Assembly: GCA_023447635.1 (NCBI GenBank)
Contig: JAEXNA010000085.1
Coordinates: forward strand, 200-64,199
Reading direction: 5' to 3'
From: Vulcanimicrobiota bacterium
GTDB lineage: Bacteria; Vulcanimicrobiota; Xenobia; Xenobiales; JADMJV01
DNA length: 64,000 nt
The notes beneath the pieces are model-generated. The model did no database searches. It saw only the letters and a list, made by a program, of their open reading frames with translations, and was not told where the DNA came from. A program made the position numbers and the translations under genes. Shown here piece by piece: positions 42,245-48,520 of this stretch. How positions within the stretch are numbered: the stretch's first letter is position 1; each line of letters opens with the position of its first letter.

Positions 42245-42302
42245 AGCCTGGGCTTTGCCCTTGCCGAGGGTCAACTCCTCCGGGCGATCCTCCGGGCGAT
42301 CC

Positions 42303-43091
42303 TCAGGGCTGGAACTGGGCCAACCAGGTGGCCATAGCGTCGACCTCGGCCGCACTCATGCTGTTCGAGGCTACGACCGGGTCGGTCGAGTCGGGATCGA
42401 ACTCGGGGTCCTGGCCCTCGATGTAGAACTCTCCCACCATCGTGGTGTAGGACAGGTCGGCCCCTTCGCTGGACCCGGCGAACGGGTCGACCGCGCCGGG
42501 GTCGCGGATCGAATCCGCGATGTAGGCGCGCCAGTCGCCTTCGGAAGGCGTGTTGTTAGGCATGCCTCGGCCTTGATAGTCCATCGTCGAGGTAGGGATG
42601 ATCGGCCCCAGCGGTACCCGATAGCGATCGGTGGGAGAGCCGGCCTGAGGCAGCGAGTGACACTGCACGCAGCCGAACTTTTCGAAGGCGGCCTGGCCCG
42701 GATCGACCACCACGTCGCAGCGAACCGTGCGGGCCGACCGCGTTCCGTGCTCGGGGTGAGTGACTGAGACTTCGACCACCGCCGTTCGAGTCGGGTCTTC
42801 TCCGGGGACCGGAGAAAGGGCGATAGAGAAGCGGTAGTCGTCCAGGGGCGAGGGGAACGGCAGATCCAGGCCGGCCTGAGCCGCCAGTTGAGGATACGGA
42901 AGGACGCGAAGTTCGGCGAGTTTGCGCCGCGTCAGGTTCTCGAGGTCGTGATTTTGGGTGGCCTGTGCGGTTTGGCGCAGGCCGGTGACGAACATCGTCA
43001 TGATAGCGGTCGAAACCACAAAGAGGATAGTGGCAGCCACGGCCAGTTCTGGCATGCTGAGCCCGTAAAGCGAACTCCGTCGGTTTCTCAT
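42303..43091 (-). CDS. Pseudopilin-like (GspI/PilV-like) protein fused to a C-terminal class I cytochrome c domain
   Basis: The N-terminus MRNRRSSLYG/LSMPELAVAATILFVVSTAIMTMFV has Gly and then Glu at +5, followed by about 20 hydrophobic residues. Beta core AVVEVSVTHPEHG..RTVRCDVVV. Haem-binding CVQCH is encoded at 42657-42671, with downstream Met/Pro-rich cytochrome c features. The ATG has GGGGGAAGAG upstream. Confidence 0.6.
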   Translation of the reverse strand: MRNRRSSLYGLSMPELAVAATILFVVSTAIMTMFVTGLRQTAQATQNHDLENLTRRKLAELRVLPYPQLAAQAGLDLPFPSPLDDYRFSIALSPVPGEDPTRTAVVEVSVTHPEHGTRSARTVRCDVVVDPGQAAFEKFGCVQCHSLPQAGSPTDRYRVPLGPIIPTSTMDYQGRGMPNNTPSEGDWRAYIADSIRDPGAVDPFAGSSEGADLSYTTMVGEFYIEGQDPEFDPDSTDPVVASNSMSAAEVDAMATWLAQFQP

Positions 43092-43111
43092 CTCTTCCCC
43101 CCGGCTGCCTT

Positions 43112-43783
43112 CTAGTTGATGCCCGGCGGCGCTTCACACGCCACGTAGCAGGTGATCGGATGGCCCAGGCTGTCGACCCACAGATCGGCCCTGGTCAAGG
43201 CGACGCCAGAACTGCTGTCGCTAAGGACCTGAAAGTCGCGAACGTTCCTGGCCAGCACCCGACCGTCTTCGGTCTCGCCATCGACCGGCGTCATGCTGGC
43301 CGCTTCGAACAGGGTTCGGCGAAGTTGACCCGGCTTGCTCGGAGGGGGAGAGTCGGCCGTGACGACGCCGTCTTCCTCGGGGTGCGGCTCGAACCAGTAG
43401 ACGGCCACCACCTCCTCGGTGACGTCGTCGTAGGTCGAGGCGGGATCCTGGCGCAGGCGAGCCACCATCAGGGGTTGGTCAGCCGTGGGGCGTAGTGCGT
43501 CGGCGGGCAGCGGGGCGTTGTCCAGGGTCACTCGCGACGAGAACCGCGCTGCCTCGATGTCCCGGGCCAGGAGATCTTCCGCCAGGGAAGCGTGGCGGAT
43601 GGCGTCGAGTTTGACCACCGCCTGCTCCTGGGTTCGCTGGGCCAGCACCAGGGCGCCGCCCACCATGCCGGTGAACAGTCCGAAGAGCGAGCCGGTGACC
43701 AGCAGTTCTATCAAGGTGACCCCGAGGGTCGAGTTTGGATATCTTCGTTCGTGATGTCTGCCGAAGCTAAAGCCTCTGATCAT
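43112..43783 (-). CDS. Prepilin-type N-terminal cleavage/methylation domain protein (GspJ/PilW-like minor pseudopilin)
   Basis: Canonical class III signal ...NSTLG/VTLIELLVTGSLFGLFTGMVGGALV with Glu at +5. 223 aa. Its ATG overlaps the 3' end of the upstream gene by 17 nt. Confidence 0.7.
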   Translation of the reverse strand: MIRGFSFGRHHERRYPNSTLGVTLIELLVTGSLFGLFTGMVGGALVLAQRTQEQAVVKLDAIRHASLAEDLLARDIEAARFSSRVTLDNAPLPADALRPTADQPLMVARLRQDPASTYDDVTEEVVAVYWFEPHPEEDGVVTADSPPPSKPGQLRRTLFEAASMTPVDGETEDGRVLARNVRDFQVLSDSSSGVALTRADLWVDSLGHPITCYVACEAPPGIN

Positions 43784-44171
43784 AACTGTTCACGGACCTC
43801 CCGTACGGAACATAGATCACTCTTTCGGCCACCACATTCCCCCGCCCGTCGAGCACACGCCCACGGGCCCAGTAGCTGTCGCCTAAATCCATCCGTTCGA
43901 CTTCCATCTCTTCCAGGTCGGGTACGACCTCGCGCGTGACCACTTCGCTGTTGGCGACCGCCGCGCCACTGTAATACCGATACTGGTAGTACTCGACGGC
44001 CGCCCGAGCCAGTGTTTGGGCCTGACGGTCGGCCTGCTGCTGGCGTTGGAAGAAGAGGTCGTGCTGGCAAAAGGTCAGGAAGCCGATCCCCAGACAGAGC
44101 AGGACCAGCGTGAGCAAGATCGAGGTCGCCAGCGCCGCGCCACGGATTGACAGACCTCGTTGGATGCTCAT
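43767..44171 (-). CDS. PilX/GspK-like minor pseudopilin (PilX_N-like N-terminus)
   Basis: MSIQRGLSIRGAALATSILLTLVLLCLGIG resembles the PilX N-terminal QRG(A/S)xL + hydrophobic helix without Glu5. It is the first gene of the three-gene set. Confidence 0.5.
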   Translation of the reverse strand: MSIQRGLSIRGAALATSILLTLVLLCLGIGFLTFCQHDLFFQRQQQADRQAQTLARAAVEYYQYRYYSGAAVANSEVVTREVVPDLEEMEVERMDLGDSYWARGRVLDGRGNVVAERVIYVPYGRSVNSYDQRL

Positions 44172-44223
44172 ATGTTGAATTTATCAGACTACGGTCGATT
44201 GACCGCATCCAGGAGGATGCCGA

Positions 44224-44901
44224 GTGACAACCCCATACGCCTCCTCATCGCTCCTTGTTCTGCTCCTGCTCTGGGGCTGCTCGAACCCCGCCGAGCCTCC
44301 GCCCGCCGCCTCGACAACCCCTGGTATCAGAGGGGTTGCGGCTTCGACTGCGGCAAAGGGCGAGGCCTCGTCGGAGGGTGGAGGTGGTCTTTTGGGAGGG
44401 GATGGGGATAGGTCGGAGGGGGCATCCCAGCCGTCCAGGGCGGAACGCGACCAGGCCTACCAGCAGGCCCGAGAGGGGTTCCCTCAAGAGTCCTCCCGAG
44501 CCCCCAACCCCAGCCAGGCCCGGCGGCAAGCCTCGCCGAAAACGCTCGAGCAGACCGCTCCGATGAGCGGACGAGACGAGGTGCTGGCTATGACCGTCAC
44601 CGCTTCCTCGCTCGAGTCGGTCCAGTCGGGTAAAGAGCTGTACGCTTCGTCCTGCGCGGCCTGTCATAAGATCGACGGTTCGCCGGAGCGAGGGACGGGC
44701 AATCTGGCGGCCTACAACATGGCCAACCTTTCCGACCCGCTACGCTATAAATATGGGGCCGACGCTCGAGGGGTGTTTCGCTCCATCGCCTTCGGGGTGC
44801 CGGCGCCGCCTCACGGGATCTATAAGAAGCGGCTCAGCGACGCGCAGATCTGGAACCTGACCAACTTCGTCCTCTCCCTGCAGAAGCCGGCCGAGAGCTA
44901 A
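44224..44901 (+). CDS. Lipoprotein monohaem class I cytochrome c with low-complexity linker
   Basis: Lipobox LLLWGC. Pro/Ala/Ser/Gly/Glu-rich linker of about 100 aa. Haem site CAACH is encoded at 44653-44667. The GTG start lies 7 nt after AGGAGG. Confidence 0.7.
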   Translation: MTTPYASSSLLVLLLLWGCSNPAEPPPAASTTPGIRGVAASTAAKGEASSEGGGGLLGGDGDRSEGASQPSRAERDQAYQQAREGFPQESSRAPNPSQARRQASPKTLEQTAPMSGRDEVLAMTVTASSLESVQSGKELYASSCAACHKIDGSPERGTGNLAAYNMANLSDPLRYKYGADARGVFRSIAFGVPAPPHGIYKKRLSDAQIWNLTNFVLSLQKPAES

Positions 44902-45329
44902 GCGGTGGCCGAGCCGCCAAAGAGGCGGCGGAAGAACCCCACGGGCGACGGCCTGGCCTCCTCGGCAGGGGTCGGCTGGCCCTCTGTGGCGGCCAGGTAC
45001 TGACGGATCTTGGTCAACTCGCCGTCATCGAGCCACATCCCGTGGTCTCGACACATGTCGACCAGCACACCGCTGTCGACCATGTAGACGTGGCGCTTCA
45101 TGCGCAGGGAGCAGTCGGGGCACTTGATGGTGTGCTCCAAGGCGACGCCAGGAGTGTCGCACTGCAGGGTCGGCTCGATATCCGAGCTTTCCAGTTGAAG
45201 GTCGGAGAGGCGCAGCACTTTGTCGAACTGATCGAAGCCGAACCAGCAGCCTTCGCAGCGCGAGCAGAGACTGCCCAGCGGGGTCGGGTTCAGGGTTTGG
45301 GCACAGCGAGGGCATTCGGATTGCGGCAT
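44898..45329 (-). CDS. Zinc-ribbon protein (zf-TFIIB / PF13453-like, two modules)
   Basis: Two modules: CPRC...CSRCEGCWFGFDQF and CPDC...VDMCRDHGMWLDDGEL. Confidence 0.55.
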   Translation of the reverse strand: MPQSECPRCAQTLNPTPLGSLCSRCEGCWFGFDQFDKVLRLSDLQLESSDIEPTLQCDTPGVALEHTIKCPDCSLRMKRHVYMVDSGVLVDMCRDHGMWLDDGELTKIRQYLAATEGQPTPAEEARPSPVGFFRRLFGGSATA

Positions 45330-45442
45330 AGGCTAGCATTCTCCATCGACGGCAGGGCCCCTCGCCGCTGCTTCGGAGGCAGGGAAAGTCCCGCCGTGGC
45401 GTCCAAGGGGTGGGGACAAAGATTTGACAAGAGAGGCCTCCC

Positions 45443-46624
45443 GTGACCGATATCCTTCATCCTCGCTCGGACTTCTACATGCTAGAGTCGACCCTGACCC
45501 CCCAGCAGCAGGACCGCCTGCGCCAGGTGCGCGCTTTTATGCGCGAGCGCGTGCAGCCGATCATCAACGAGTTCTGGACCCGAGAAGAGTTTCCTCACGC
45601 TCTGATCCCGGATATGGCTGAGCTCGAAATTGCTGGTAACCCCTACCAGGGCTACGGCTGCCCCGGCGAAAGCTGGCTATTCGACGGCTTCCTAACCCAG
45701 GAACTGGCCCGCATCGACTGCTCTATCGCGACCTTCTTTGGGGTTCACAGCGGTCTGGCCATGGGTTCGATCTATCTGTGCGGTAGCGATGAGCAGAAGG
45801 ACCGCTGGCTACCGAAGATGCGCAAGATGGAGCTGATCGGTGCCTTCGGTCTGACCGAGCCCGACCACGGTTCGGACGTTTCCAAGGGGCTCGAGACGAC
45901 CGCCAAGCGGGACGGCGACAGCTGGATCCTCAACGGGATGAAGAAGTGGATCGGTAACGCGACCTTCGCCGACGTCACCGTGATCTGGGCCCGCGACGTG
46001 GACGACGGCCAGGTCAAGGGGTTCCTGGTCGAACGCGGCACCCCCGGCTTCGAGCCGCGCAAGATGACGGGCAAGATGGCGCTGCGGGTGGTCCAGAACG
46101 CCGAGATCTCCCTGCAAGACTGCCGTGTGCCCGAGAGCAACCGACTGCAGCGCGCCAAAAGCTTCGCCGACACGGCCAAAGTGCTGCGTATGACCCGGGC
46201 CGGTGTGGCCTGGCAGGCCGTCGGTAACATGGCAGGTGCCTACGAGCTGACTCTGGACTACACCAAGAACCGCAAGCAGTTCAACCGCCCTATCGCCGGC
46301 TTCCAACTGGTGCAGGACCGCCTGGCTCTGATGCTGGCCAATATCACTTCGTCGCAGACTCTGGTCTACCGCCTGTCGCAGATGCAGGACGCCGGCCAGT
46401 TCAACGAAGAGCACGCCTCGCTGGCCAAGATGGTCTGCACGGTGAAGATGCGCGAAACGGTCGGTCTGGCCCGCGAACTGCTGGGCGGCAACGGTATCTT
46501 GCTCGACCATCACGTGGGCCGCTTCGTGGCCGACGCCGAAGCGATTTACTCCTATGAGGGGACTCGTGAAGTGAACGCCCTGATCGTGGGCCGCGCGGTC
46601 ACCGGCCTGGGCGCTTTCGTTTAA
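45443..46624 (+). CDS. Acyl-CoA dehydrogenase, glutaryl-CoA dehydrogenase-like
   Basis: Acyl-CoA dehydrogenase signatures FGLTEPDHGSD and IYSYEGTREVNALI, with overall GCDH-like N-terminus and length. The GTG start lies 7 nt after GAGAGG. Confidence 0.85.
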   Translation: MTDILHPRSDFYMLESTLTPQQQDRLRQVRAFMRERVQPIINEFWTREEFPHALIPDMAELEIAGNPYQGYGCPGESWLFDGFLTQELARIDCSIATFFGVHSGLAMGSIYLCGSDEQKDRWLPKMRKMELIGAFGLTEPDHGSDVSKGLETTAKRDGDSWILNGMKKWIGNATFADVTVIWARDVDDGQVKGFLVERGTPGFEPRKMTGKMALRVVQNAEISLQDCRVPESNRLQRAKSFADTAKVLRMTRAGVAWQAVGNMAGAYELTLDYTKNRKQFNRPIAGFQLVQDRLALMLANITSSQTLVYRLSQMQDAGQFNEEHASLAKMVCTVKMRETVGLARELLGGNGILLDHHVGRFVADAEAIYSYEGTREVNALIVGRAVTGLGAFV

Positions 46625-46634
46625 AACGGGGCGG

Positions 46635-47291
46635 TCAGCCTTCGCCCATGTTGGCGCTGGGCTGGTCGCGCAGACCGTCGCTCCAGGTCGACACGGCCAG
46701 CAACAGCCGGTTCCCCTCGCAGGCCGACTCCCAGGCCTCGTCCAGGTCCCCCTCGCGGCTCTGGGCGAAGGCCTGGAACCAGCTGGCGAAGGCGTCTTCG
46801 AGGTAGCGATGGCCGGCTACCGATTCGGCCGTGACTTCGCCTTCTTCGACTTCGATGGCGGAATAGTCCGTCCAGATAGCACGAAACTCGGCCTCCAGCG
46901 CCGTCAGGCGCCCCTCCAACCGCAGGCCCCTGGCTTCATCGGGCTCTGAGTCCAGACCGCGCAAGATCGCTTCGAAGCGGTCCAGGCGATCGCTTCCGTA
47001 GGCCTCCTCGTCGAGCGACCCGGCCACCTGCTCGAGGCCTTCCTCGACCATCTCGAGCGGGGTCAGGGACTGAGGTAGCAGATGGGAGAAACGGTCGCGC
47101 AGTTCGGCCAGCTTCTCGGGCTGGAAGTCCGGGTCTTCCAGATGCTGCTCCAGCGCCTCGGCCAGATCGTCATAGCGCTTCTTTTCAGGTAGCGCCTGAA
47201 AGACGCGCTCGAGCATATCGCGCGTGGCTCCGCGCTCGTGACCCGACAGGTCGGTCAGCGCCAACCAGCTCAAAAACTCCTCGACATCCAT
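46635..47291 (-). CDS. Hypothetical acidic helical protein downstream of pilC/gspF
   Basis: Glu/Asp/Leu-rich ORF with no motif recognised. The start is ATG 47291 (or TTG 47342), 27-78 nt downstream of the pilC-like stop on the same strand. Confidence 0.45.
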   Translation of the reverse strand: MDVEEFLSWLALTDLSGHERGATRDMLERVFQALPEKKRYDDLAEALEQHLEDPDFQPEKLAELRDRFSHLLPQSLTPLEMVEEGLEQVAGSLDEEAYGSDRLDRFEAILRGLDSEPDEARGLRLEGRLTALEAEFRAIWTDYSAIEVEEGEVTAESVAGHRYLEDAFASWFQAFAQSREGDLDEAWESACEGNRLLLAVSTWSDGLRDQPSANMGEG

Positions 47292-47368
47292 TCGGGTCGC
47301 GTTTTCGCTCGGCTTCCGCCGGATCCCCTCAGGGGAGAGCAAAGCTCGGGTTTTCCGTCAGGCGAAGC

Positions 47369-48520
47369 TCAGGCTCCGCCTAGCTTAGCCAGCACGCCGT
47401 AAATGGGCAGAAACATCCCGACGAAGAGGACGGCCATAGCCATTCCCATCCCGCAGATGACCAGCGGCTCTATCAGGGCGGTGATGGTGCCGATCAGGCT
47501 GTCGATCTCCTCGTCCATCAGGCGTTTGTTGGCCTCTAGCATCTGCTCCATACTGCCGCTCTCCTCTCCCACCACTAACATAGAGTGGAAGATCGGCGGA
47601 AAATAGCTGATCGACTCCAGCGCCCCGGACAGACTGCCCGACATGGTCAGCGCCTTACGGGCCTCGCGCAAGGAGGCGCGATGAGATTCGAAGGGCGTAG
47701 CGTTGATGATCATCTGCAGCGAACGATGCACCGGGATGCCGTCGCGATGTAGGTAGGCCAGGGTCTCGCAGAGCGAGGCGCACAGCAGTTTCCCCACGAT
47801 CGGTCGGCTCCACGGACACCAGAGCAAGGCGTCGAAAGCTTTCTGGCGCAACTCTTCGCGGTACATCACGGCGGCCACGAACAGCCCCAGCAAGCCGCCC
47901 AGGGTCAAAGGGTGGTCCAGCGCACCGACGGCCAGGAAGACCAGGCGAGAGATCAAGGGGAAGGTCAGATCCATCTGCTCGTAGAGCGCCACGAACTTGG
48001 GGAAGACCAGCTTCACCACCAGGAACAGCACCGTGCCGCAGAGCGCGGCGGTGATCAGGGGAGAGGTCAGGGCGTCTTTGATCTTATGGCGAAAGTCGAT
48101 CTGGTTCTACATCAGCCCGGCCGCGCGGCGCAGTCGTCCTCCGATATCGCCGCCTTCCTCTCCCGTCCGGATCACCGCCAGGGTGCTGGCGGGAAAGTGG
48201 TCGGGATAGCGGGCGAAGGCCGCCGACAAGGTCGAACCCGAGTGCACGCGGCGCGTGATGTCGTCGAGCACGACGGCAAAACGCGGGTCGTCTTGCTGCC
48301 GGGCCAGCGAATCGAGCGCCATCCCGGGCGACAGCCCGTTGGTGATCATAATCCCCAGTTGGTCCAGTACCACACAGGCCGCTTTTTCGTGGCTCGGACG
48401 AAAGGCTTCCGCAAAACGCCGGAGGCGCGTGGCCGGGGAAGAGGTTAGGGTCGAGGAGAGGCGCGGCGAGGGGGTCGAGGTTCGTGACGCGGCGAGCATA
48501 CCGATCACTGTACCTTTCAA
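47369..48520 (-). pseudogene. Type II secretion / type IV pilus platform protein GspF/PilC, interrupted by one in-frame TAG (complement of 48107-48109)
   Basis: ORF 48107..48520 encodes the first T2SSF domain (...VIRTGEEGGDIGGRLRRAAGLM*). The same frame continues directly as NQIDFRHKIKDALTSPLITAALCGTVLFLVVKLVFPKF... into ORF 47369..48031, which carries the second T2SSF domain (...MLVVGEESGSMEQML...LIEPLVICGMG). 48106 minus 48031 equals 75, so both parts are in one frame. Confidence 0.75.

Follow-up and report, generated by a model that had tools for sequence, protein, structure and literature searches.

A 64,000-nt stretch of genomic DNA from a Vulcanimicrobiota bacterium (NCBI GenBank assembly GCA_023447635.1, contig JAEXNA010000085.1, positions 200 to 64,199 of the forward strand; hereafter the window, whose numbering is used unless another locus is named) encodes a protein of 262 amino acids in which a type IV pilin module is covalently joined to a class I cytochrome c module. 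The fusion gene (42303–43091, minus strand) is the last of three consecutive pilin-like genes, and a tethered monohaem cytochrome c is encoded divergently beside them. The domain architecture and haem ligands of the fusion are conserved among its homologues, its gene is under purifying selection, and the three pilin-like genes recur in linkage with the tethered cytochrome and, less often, with a gene for a GspF/PilC-type platform protein.

The operon consists of a gene for a K-like pseudopilin (134 aa; 43767–44171, minus strand), a second pilin-like gene (223 aa; 43112–43783, minus strand) and the fusion gene, the first two overlapping by 17 nt and the last two separated by 20 nt. A divergent intergenic region of 52 bp (44172–44223) lies between the operon and the tethered cytochrome gene (225 aa; 44224–44901, plus strand) and holds the Shine-Dalgarno sequence of the latter, an AGGAGG located 7 nt 5' of its GTG start. 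A promoter-like TTGACA-18-TATGTT at 44147–44176 (plus strand) partly overlaps this spacer and is a consensus match only. The four open reading frames (ORFs) have a third-position GC content of 0.76–0.80, in line with real genes, in a window of 62% GC. A first-pass annotation of the window, made from the sequence alone, had drawn the same picture, and its ORF coordinates, overlap, gap, spacer and AGGAGG were confirmed, as were the two haem motifs (CVQCH, 42657–42671; CAACH, 44653–44667) and the lipobox of the divergent cytochrome (LLLWG/C19).

Pilin and cytochrome modules of the fusion protein

The fusion begins with MRNRRSSLYG/LSMPELAVAATILFVV, where the slash marks the predicted cleavage site: a basic leader of 10 residues is followed by the cleavage motif G10/L11-S-M-P-E15 (43047–43064). 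A close-homologue search of 5.8 billion proteins returned 12 full-length fusion homologues of 47–100% identity. Residue G10 is invariant in the 10 of these with a complete N-terminus, and E15, the Glu5 of the predicted mature protein, is invariant in 12 of 12; in an alignment of 34 fusion homologues reaching down to ~20% identity, Glu5 is kept in at least 90%. When each orthologue was scanned separately, 8 of the 12 matched the Pfam domain N_methyl (PF07963/IPR012902; best E 1.6e-5), and the window copy gave no N_methyl match of its own at E ≤ 1. AlphaFold2 was run with the family alignment on the whole fusion and on residues 1–129 (pLDDT, the predicted local distance difference test score, 79 and 83, respectively). 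It predicts a continuous alpha-1 helix over residues 13–63, a short helix and four antiparallel strands over residues 74–125, with a helical cytochrome-like domain beginning ~5 residues after the pilin module. Sequence and predicted fold mark the N-terminal half of the fusion (residues 1–128; 42708–43091) as a pilin module and not as a simple membrane anchor.

When 1.84 billion cluster representatives were searched exhaustively with the family profile, 183 hits were obtained, ~37 of which (clusters at 50% identity, 200–290 aa, all metagenomic) show the two-part architecture of the fusion. The same profile retrieved ~130 small proteins of 120–150 aa that align over query positions 4–120, and the ten that were checked contain N_methyl and no other domain. 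About 10 further hits join the same pilin module to NHL-repeat propellers, and others carry CarboxypepD_reg. Because the module recurs with NHL, CarboxypepD_reg and other cargo, it is a general carrier. The NHL-repeat fusions are metagenomic proteins of ~400–500 aa with SMP-30-like beta-propellers (P0039, P0049, P0053, P0054, P0065, P0093, P0115 and P0152); in P0157, the module is joined to CarboxypepD_reg repeats.

The C-terminal half of the fusion (residues 129–262; 42306–42707) had been annotated as a class I cytochrome c domain with an intact haem site, and this assignment holds. Only five columns are invariant in the 34 homologues, namely V110, C141, C144, H145 and M218. The CVQCH motif (C141-V-Q-C144-H145) is thus kept throughout this set as well as in the 12 close orthologues, so that loss of CxxCH among orthologues, an outcome that the first-pass annotation had listed against its own proposal, was not found. 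The axial ligand kept family-wide is Met218 (42438–42440); Met245 is invariant in the close clade only. Since Met218 sits in a motif, YI..SI..P......M, that resembles mitochondrial-type cytochromes c, the fusion haem is most probably His/Met ligated. Pfam Cytochrom_C (PF00034) matches 10 of the 12 orthologues (best E 1.7e-6), and the window copy falls below the cut-off at 17.9 versus 21.3 bits. The domain calls are therefore weak from the window sequence alone and are settled by the comparative data. Finally, hhalign aligned the cytochrome module with the tethered cytochrome family at a probability of 81% (E 1.3e-5).

The ratio of nonsynonymous to synonymous substitution rates (dN/dS) of the fusion gene against two orthologues is 0.08–0.15 and is alike in the pilin and cytochrome halves. 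We conclude from these comparisons that the fusion gene is conserved and under selection in both of its halves, which are intact; a dN/dS of ~0.09 rules out that it is a pseudogene or arose as an ORF by chance. No cytochrome maturation genes were recognised in Pfam scans of ~50 genes of the window.

Partner genes and their linkage across loci

The K-like protein begins with ...IRG/AALATSILLTLVLL and has no Glu at +5. Its cleavage region, IRG/AALAT, places Thr at +5, and this motif is kept in 9 divergent orthologues. Orthologues occur at every locus type and share invariant G11, A13, D38, A55 and Y61. The NCBIfam model T2SS_GspK weakly matches the family over positions 2–57 (E 0.048 for the window copy, 3.3e-4 for locus L014 and 0.16 for L011), with scores of 13–20 bits against a cut-off of 130. 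Pfam PilX_N was not significant, reaching E 0.2 at best in 2 of 6 members. At 134 aa, the protein is without the large alpha-domain of GspK, which is ~300 aa long. Of the PilX/GspK-like assignment made in the first-pass annotation, the missing Glu5 and a weak GspK-type N-terminus stand; PilX_N and the alpha-domain do not.

The second protein, previously called GspJ/PilW-like, carries the class III signal TLG/VTLIELLV, and Pfam N_methyl matches 7 of 7 orthologues (best E 8.4e-6; window copy E 0.41). Its pilin character is borne out, and its assignment to GspJ is not, as there was no T2SSJ match in Pfam or NCBIfam. The claimed GspI/PilV membership of the fusion likewise failed: no significant T2SSI match was obtained in Pfam or NCBIfam, and Foldseek and Protein Data Bank (PDB) profile searches were empty. 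The label 'GspI/PilV-like' is accordingly used here for size and predicted topology only. We rejected membership of GspI (PF02501) and GspJ (PF11612), since N_methyl was the only match for the fusion, the second gene and the ten small relatives. Overall, the profiles that could bear on the earlier family calls gave a mixed result: N_methyl was found in orthologues of the fusion and the second gene and Cytochrom_C in orthologues of the fusion, and PilX_N, T2SSI and T2SSJ gave nothing significant.

The tethered cytochrome carries a lipobox cysteine, Cys19 (44278–44280), a low-complexity linker of ~100 residues and CAACH (44653–44667). Pfam Cytochrom_C matches it above the cut-off (42.7 bits, E 1.5e-10) and NCBIfam finds a ccoP C-terminal domain (1.7e-7); the haem domain is ccoP- or c6-like. 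Every full-length family member has a lipobox or, in L014, a transmembrane helix, followed by a linker of 80–120 residues. The hhalign comparison given above indicates that the haem domains of the tethered cytochrome and the fusion are homologous. In this alignment, Met218 of the fusion pairs with His197 (44812–44814) of an APPHG motif in the tethered protein. APPHG is invariant in the tethered cytochromes of the Xenobia clade, and the distant L011 (3179–3736, minus strand) and L014 (6534–7172, plus strand) proteins have SAMG or ASMG. Because His replaces the distal-ligand Met of the distant relatives, the Xenobia-clade protein may have switched from His/Met to His/His ligation, with a lower-potential haem. 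An alternative ligand in this clade is the invariant Met166 (YNMANL).

The window and its close relatives form one lineage, which includes one locus in a Candidatus Xenobia (Eremiobacterota) metagenome-assembled genome (MAG). Loci of this lineage that extend far enough share the gene order acyl-CoA dehydrogenase, Zn-ribbon, platform, tethered cytochrome (on the opposite strand), K-like, second pilin, fusion, HrpB-like helicase and argH. As the whole neighbourhood is syntenic, linkage within this clade proves little by itself. The informative loci are those of distant fusion homologues, with 21–32% identity and unrelated neighbourhoods; a narrow-alignment metagenome scan accounted for 3 loci. 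In L011, a divergent lipoprotein cytochrome c is followed by the K-like gene, the pilin gene, the fusion and the platform gene, which starts at the final base of the fusion stop codon, in a neighbourhood that is otherwise unrelated. L018 has a divergent cytochrome c, K-like, pilin and fusion. In L014, the K-like, pilin and fusion genes are followed, in the same direction and overlapping, by a transmembrane-anchored cytochrome c of the same family. Only the three pilin-like genes are present in L012, L013 and L016/L017.

The K-like gene, second pilin gene and fusion gene were contiguous in all loci examined (the window, L001–L014, L017 and L018), and the K-like and second-pilin families are homologous across the distant loci, the latter across all locus types. 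The claimed operon of pilin-like genes is thus upheld, with two of them preceding the fusion at each of these loci, and the invariant unit is the trio, because its genes persist where the cytochrome and platform genes do not. The tethered cytochrome adjoins the trio in L001–L010, L011, L014 and L018, and so accompanies it in 4 of 6 informative divergent lineages and in two arrangements, being upstream and divergent in L011, L018 and the Xenobia clade, and co-directionally downstream in L014. The proposed pairing of the fusion with a tethered monohaem cytochrome is supported by this recurrence. No PilY1-like gene was seen in the loci examined.

The platform gene (47369–48520, minus strand), absent from the first-pass account, encodes two T2SSF domains (Pfam). 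NCBIfam GspF scores it at 181–191 bits, and because this is below the 424-bit equivalog cut-off, the protein is not assignable to the type II secretion system (T2SS), type IV pili or Com. By these scores, it is a divergent member of the GspF/PilC/ComGB family. An in-frame TAG (48107–48109) lies in the window copy; at this codon, L009 (83% identity) reads CAG (Gln), and its 326-aa product is intact. The dN/dS is ~0.06 before the stop and 0.11 after it. Together with the CAG of L009, these values suggest that the stop arose very recently by nonsense mutation, varies between strains or is a sequencing error, rather than marking a long-standing pseudogene. The gene adjoins the module in L001–L005 and L010 and shares its operon in L011.

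Several further features of these neighbourhoods were noted. In the window and L009, the platform gene is displaced by ~2.5 kb, past the acyl-CoA dehydrogenase gene, from its place beside the tethered cytochrome in most relatives, and is accompanied by a gene for an acidic protein of 235–251 aa (46635–47342 in the window); the rearrangement is seen when window positions 44898–48520 are compared with L001 5254–8145. The gene at 44898–45329 (minus strand), whose product of 143 aa has two zinc ribbons of the TFIIB type (PF13453), overlaps the end of the tethered cytochrome gene by 4 nt at its stop, tail to tail; wherever a Xenobia-clade locus reaches that far, this gene is conserved beside the platform or the cytochrome gene. 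At 42290–42355, the ORF of an 810-aa HrpB-like helicase (GTG at 42355) shares 53 nt with the 3' end of the fusion gene, in a segment holding a tandem 12-nt duplication (ggatcgcccgga x2) that encodes PEDRPEDRP. Since the helicase is called 43–108 nt past the fusion stop in most relatives (L003–L005, L008 and L010), its true start in the window is probably further downstream. L002 (JBBCJA010000004.1) is labelled as a Selenomonadaceae MAG and yet is gene-for-gene syntenic with L001 of Candidatus Xenobia and the window, which looks like a binning or labelling error. Lastly, the module in L018 (3766–5981) lies ~2 kb from feoAB, encoding ferrous iron uptake, and near a PilZ-domain gene; the proximity to feoAB may be a coincidence or a hint of an iron link.

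Comparison with modular pilins and known cytochrome systems

More than 1,200 modular pilins in 264 architectures have been catalogued, and their modules were argued to be tip-exposed (Raynaud et al. 2021, PMC8179133). As in the PilB (pilin and vWA) and PilC (pilin and lectin) proteins of Streptococcus sanguinis described there, the fusion consists of a class III pilin module (residues 1–128), a short linker of ~5 residues and a C-terminal module, here the cytochrome (129–262). Modular pilins are expected at the filament tip, and the carrier module of the fusion is likewise reused, with NHL cargo. Known modules bind ligands or are peptidases, whereas that of the fusion is a haem c redox domain with a linked partner cytochrome. 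No cytochrome c signature occurs among the 264 architectures of Dataset S1 of that study (PMC8179133), an absence that fits the sub-threshold Pfam scores of the fusion family. Public annotations of its members read 'pseudopilin PulG' or 'hypothetical protein'. We found no description of a pilin-cytochrome fusion in the literature, in agreement with the first-pass statement that no characterised pseudopilin-cytochrome c fusion is known. The fusion is a modular pilin with a cytochrome c module, new to the modular-pilin catalogue.

The trio also resembles the GspI-GspJ-GspK (PilV-PilW-PilX) tip complex, which likewise comprises three consecutive pilin-like genes, one of them without Glu5 and, in our case weakly, with a GspK-like N-terminus. 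The pilin module of the fusion, ~120 residues forming a helix and a small sheet, is similar to GspI in size and topology, and a linked GspF/PilC-type platform gene is common to the trio and the minor pseudopilins of T2SS and type IV pili. Unlike in those systems, the order here is K-J-I, there is no H-type subunit, no further T2SS or type IV pilus genes lie nearby and the K-like protein is without the alpha-domain.

A second comparison is with TfcP of Myxococcus xanthus, a noncanonical cytochrome c encoded in the minor-pilin/PilY1 cluster_1 and needed for pilus formation (PMC8833165). TfcP is a soluble protein with a type I signal, His/Cys ligation and a charged C-terminal helix; it acts on PilY1, is restricted to Myxococcales, does not belong to the pilus itself and probably takes no part in electron transfer (PMC8833165). 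The likeness is that of a monohaem cytochrome c encoded with minor pilin genes and connected with the working of the priming complex. In contrast to TfcP, the cytochrome described here is covalent in a pilin with a class III signal and has predicted His/Met ligation, its partner is membrane-tethered with His or Met as the distal residue, and no PilY1 was seen. Homology to TfcP was rejected, since its ligation, signal and PilY1 features are not found here. TfcP is a precedent for an association of pilins with cytochromes and a warning on function, not a relative.

Monoderm bacteria have small cytochromes c of the c550/c551 types that are anchored as lipoproteins or by a transmembrane segment. 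The tethered partner is likewise a monohaem class I cytochrome with a lipid (elsewhere transmembrane) anchor and a flexible linker, but it is linked to pilin-like genes instead of an oxidase or bc complex, and in the Xenobia clade its distal residue is His, not Met. The conductive filaments of Geobacter are haem-free PilA-N/PilA-C pili or polymers of the multihaem cytochromes OmcS and OmcZ without pilin, and we know of no Geobacter pilin covalently fused to a cytochrome. They share with the fusion the idea of type IV machinery tied to extracytoplasmic cytochromes, and no sequence relationship.

A proposed haem at the filament tip and its alternatives

The reading that we favour, and to which we give about an even chance, is that the trio is a minor-pilin set of the K-J-I type, in which the smallest protein is a modular pilin bearing a His/Met cytochrome c. 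The set would be placed on the platform, at the far end of a short type IV filament, and would exchange electrons with the tethered cytochrome. A prepilin peptidase would process all three pilin-like proteins, and their N-terminal helices would then come together on the GspF/PilC-like platform as a bundle that forms an initiation or tip complex. This would hold the haem domain away from the cytoplasmic membrane, at the far end of a short pilus or pseudopilus. With its lipid or transmembrane anchor and linker of ~100 residues, the tethered cytochrome would act as the electron partner that joins the fibre haem to the membrane redox chain. Processing, fibre assembly, haem attachment, electron transfer and its direction, and the physiological role are what we infer from the architecture, conservation and linkage described above. 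The extracellular electron-transfer or redox-sensing role put forward in the first-pass annotation would be a pure extrapolation from them. It is rather unlikely, in our estimate, that a tip haem, bound covalently to a dynamic filament that extends and retracts or to a short piston spanning the periplasm, shuttles single electrons between an outer or extracellular redox partner (donor or acceptor) and the tethered cytochrome.

Several observations weigh against this proposal. Pfam scans recognised no assembly ATPase, prepilin peptidase (A24), secretin or major pilin among ~50 genes of the window; the related loci likewise showed none of the first three, and no obvious major pilin. The platform gene is split in the window by its in-frame TAG (48107–48109) and stands beside the trio in only 2 of 6 divergent lineages. 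Foldseek gave no PDB match at E ≤ 0.001, whether queried with the full model or with the isolated pilin module; profile searches of PDB sequences with the three families yielded marginal matches around the haem motif only and no pseudopilin; and T2SSI, T2SSJ and PilX_N were without a significant match for any member of the trio. In addition, one tip haem cannot conduct along a fibre, so that a role in electron transfer needs fibre dynamics or a very short fibre. The His at the distal position of the Xenobia partner means that its redox potential may differ strongly. TfcP shows, moreover, that a cytochrome c encoded among minor pilins need not have a redox role (PMC8833165). As for the assembly machinery, the sole cultured member of the Eremiobacterota is an aerobic diderm with type IV pili, pilMDTC and a cbb3 oxidase (PMC9758169). 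Because this organism is piliated, the missing machinery is plausible in Eremiobacterota, an argument that applies to the phylum and not to this genome.

The absence of a major pilin, ATPase or secretin at any locus would also be expected if the trio formed a static periplasmic scaffold, that is, a membrane-anchored heterotrimer that is never extended and holds the cytochrome c at a fixed height, where it would serve, together with the tethered cytochrome, as an anchored electron carrier linking respiratory complexes. Archaeal bindosomes, whose binding proteins are anchored through class III signal peptides, offer a likeness for such a scaffold, as would an arrested priming complex. Both cytochromes resemble ordinary class I carriers, the tethered one ccoP- or c6-like and the fusion His/Met, and the anchoring of both suggests that membrane retention matters. 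A plain transmembrane or lipid anchor of the kind used by the partner cytochrome would, however, suffice for this purpose, whereas the strict retention of Glu5, of two additional pilin-like genes and of a platform gene points to type IV filament assembly. The carrier module also presents NHL propellers, a fold typical of proteins that bind ligands at the surface. We regard the static scaffold as an unlikely but serious alternative.

A further possibility, which we consider improbable, is that the haem is not used for electron flux and that the cytochrome fold is structural, chaperone-like or sensory (for O2, NO or redox state), stabilising or regulating the priming complex. The requirement of TfcP for pilus formation (PMC8833165) provides a precedent, a single haem cannot make a wire, and the distal His of the Xenobia tethered cytochrome hints at altered chemistry. 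However, TfcP differs in its His/Cys ligation, type I signal, solubility, action on PilY1 and restriction to Myxococcales, whereas the fusion keeps the canonical His/Met pair in 34 of 34 homologues. No PilY1-like gene was seen, and two co-occurring cytochromes look like a donor-acceptor pair.

It is hardly credible that the fusion is a plain signal-anchored cytochrome c, as in Gram-positives, with coincidental prepilin likeness and pilin-like neighbours: the window copy has no N_methyl match at E ≤ 1 and Foldseek found no pilin, but G(-1) and Glu5 are conserved across the family, 8 of 12 orthologues match N_methyl, ~110 conserved residues of helix and beta-sheet separate the anchor from the cytochrome, and the fusion is never away from two pilin-like genes (~15 loci, at least six divergent lineages). 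The scenario that the first-pass annotation had named against its own proposal, a plain signal anchor with orthologues outside pseudopilin contexts, is largely refuted by the conserved Glu5, N_methyl and the constant trio in the loci examined.

Adhesins, lectins, DNA-binding modules and peptidases are known to be displayed on type IV filaments, whose direct part in electron transfer has long been disputed, mainly around Geobacter. The family described here adds a redox module to the modular-pilin catalogue and, as a conserved covalent union of pilin and cytochrome with a linked partner, would give a concrete test case for electron transfer by filaments. If the haem is structural only, the TfcP precedent of cytochromes repurposed for pilus biogenesis would be extended. 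Should the electron-shuttling tip prove true, it would make this the first type IV filament to carry its own redox cofactor, and extracytoplasmic electron transfer would gain a new mode that is mechanical. The trio suggests that Eremiobacterota (WPS-2) and other uncultured lineages have an envelope structure that is as yet unstudied.

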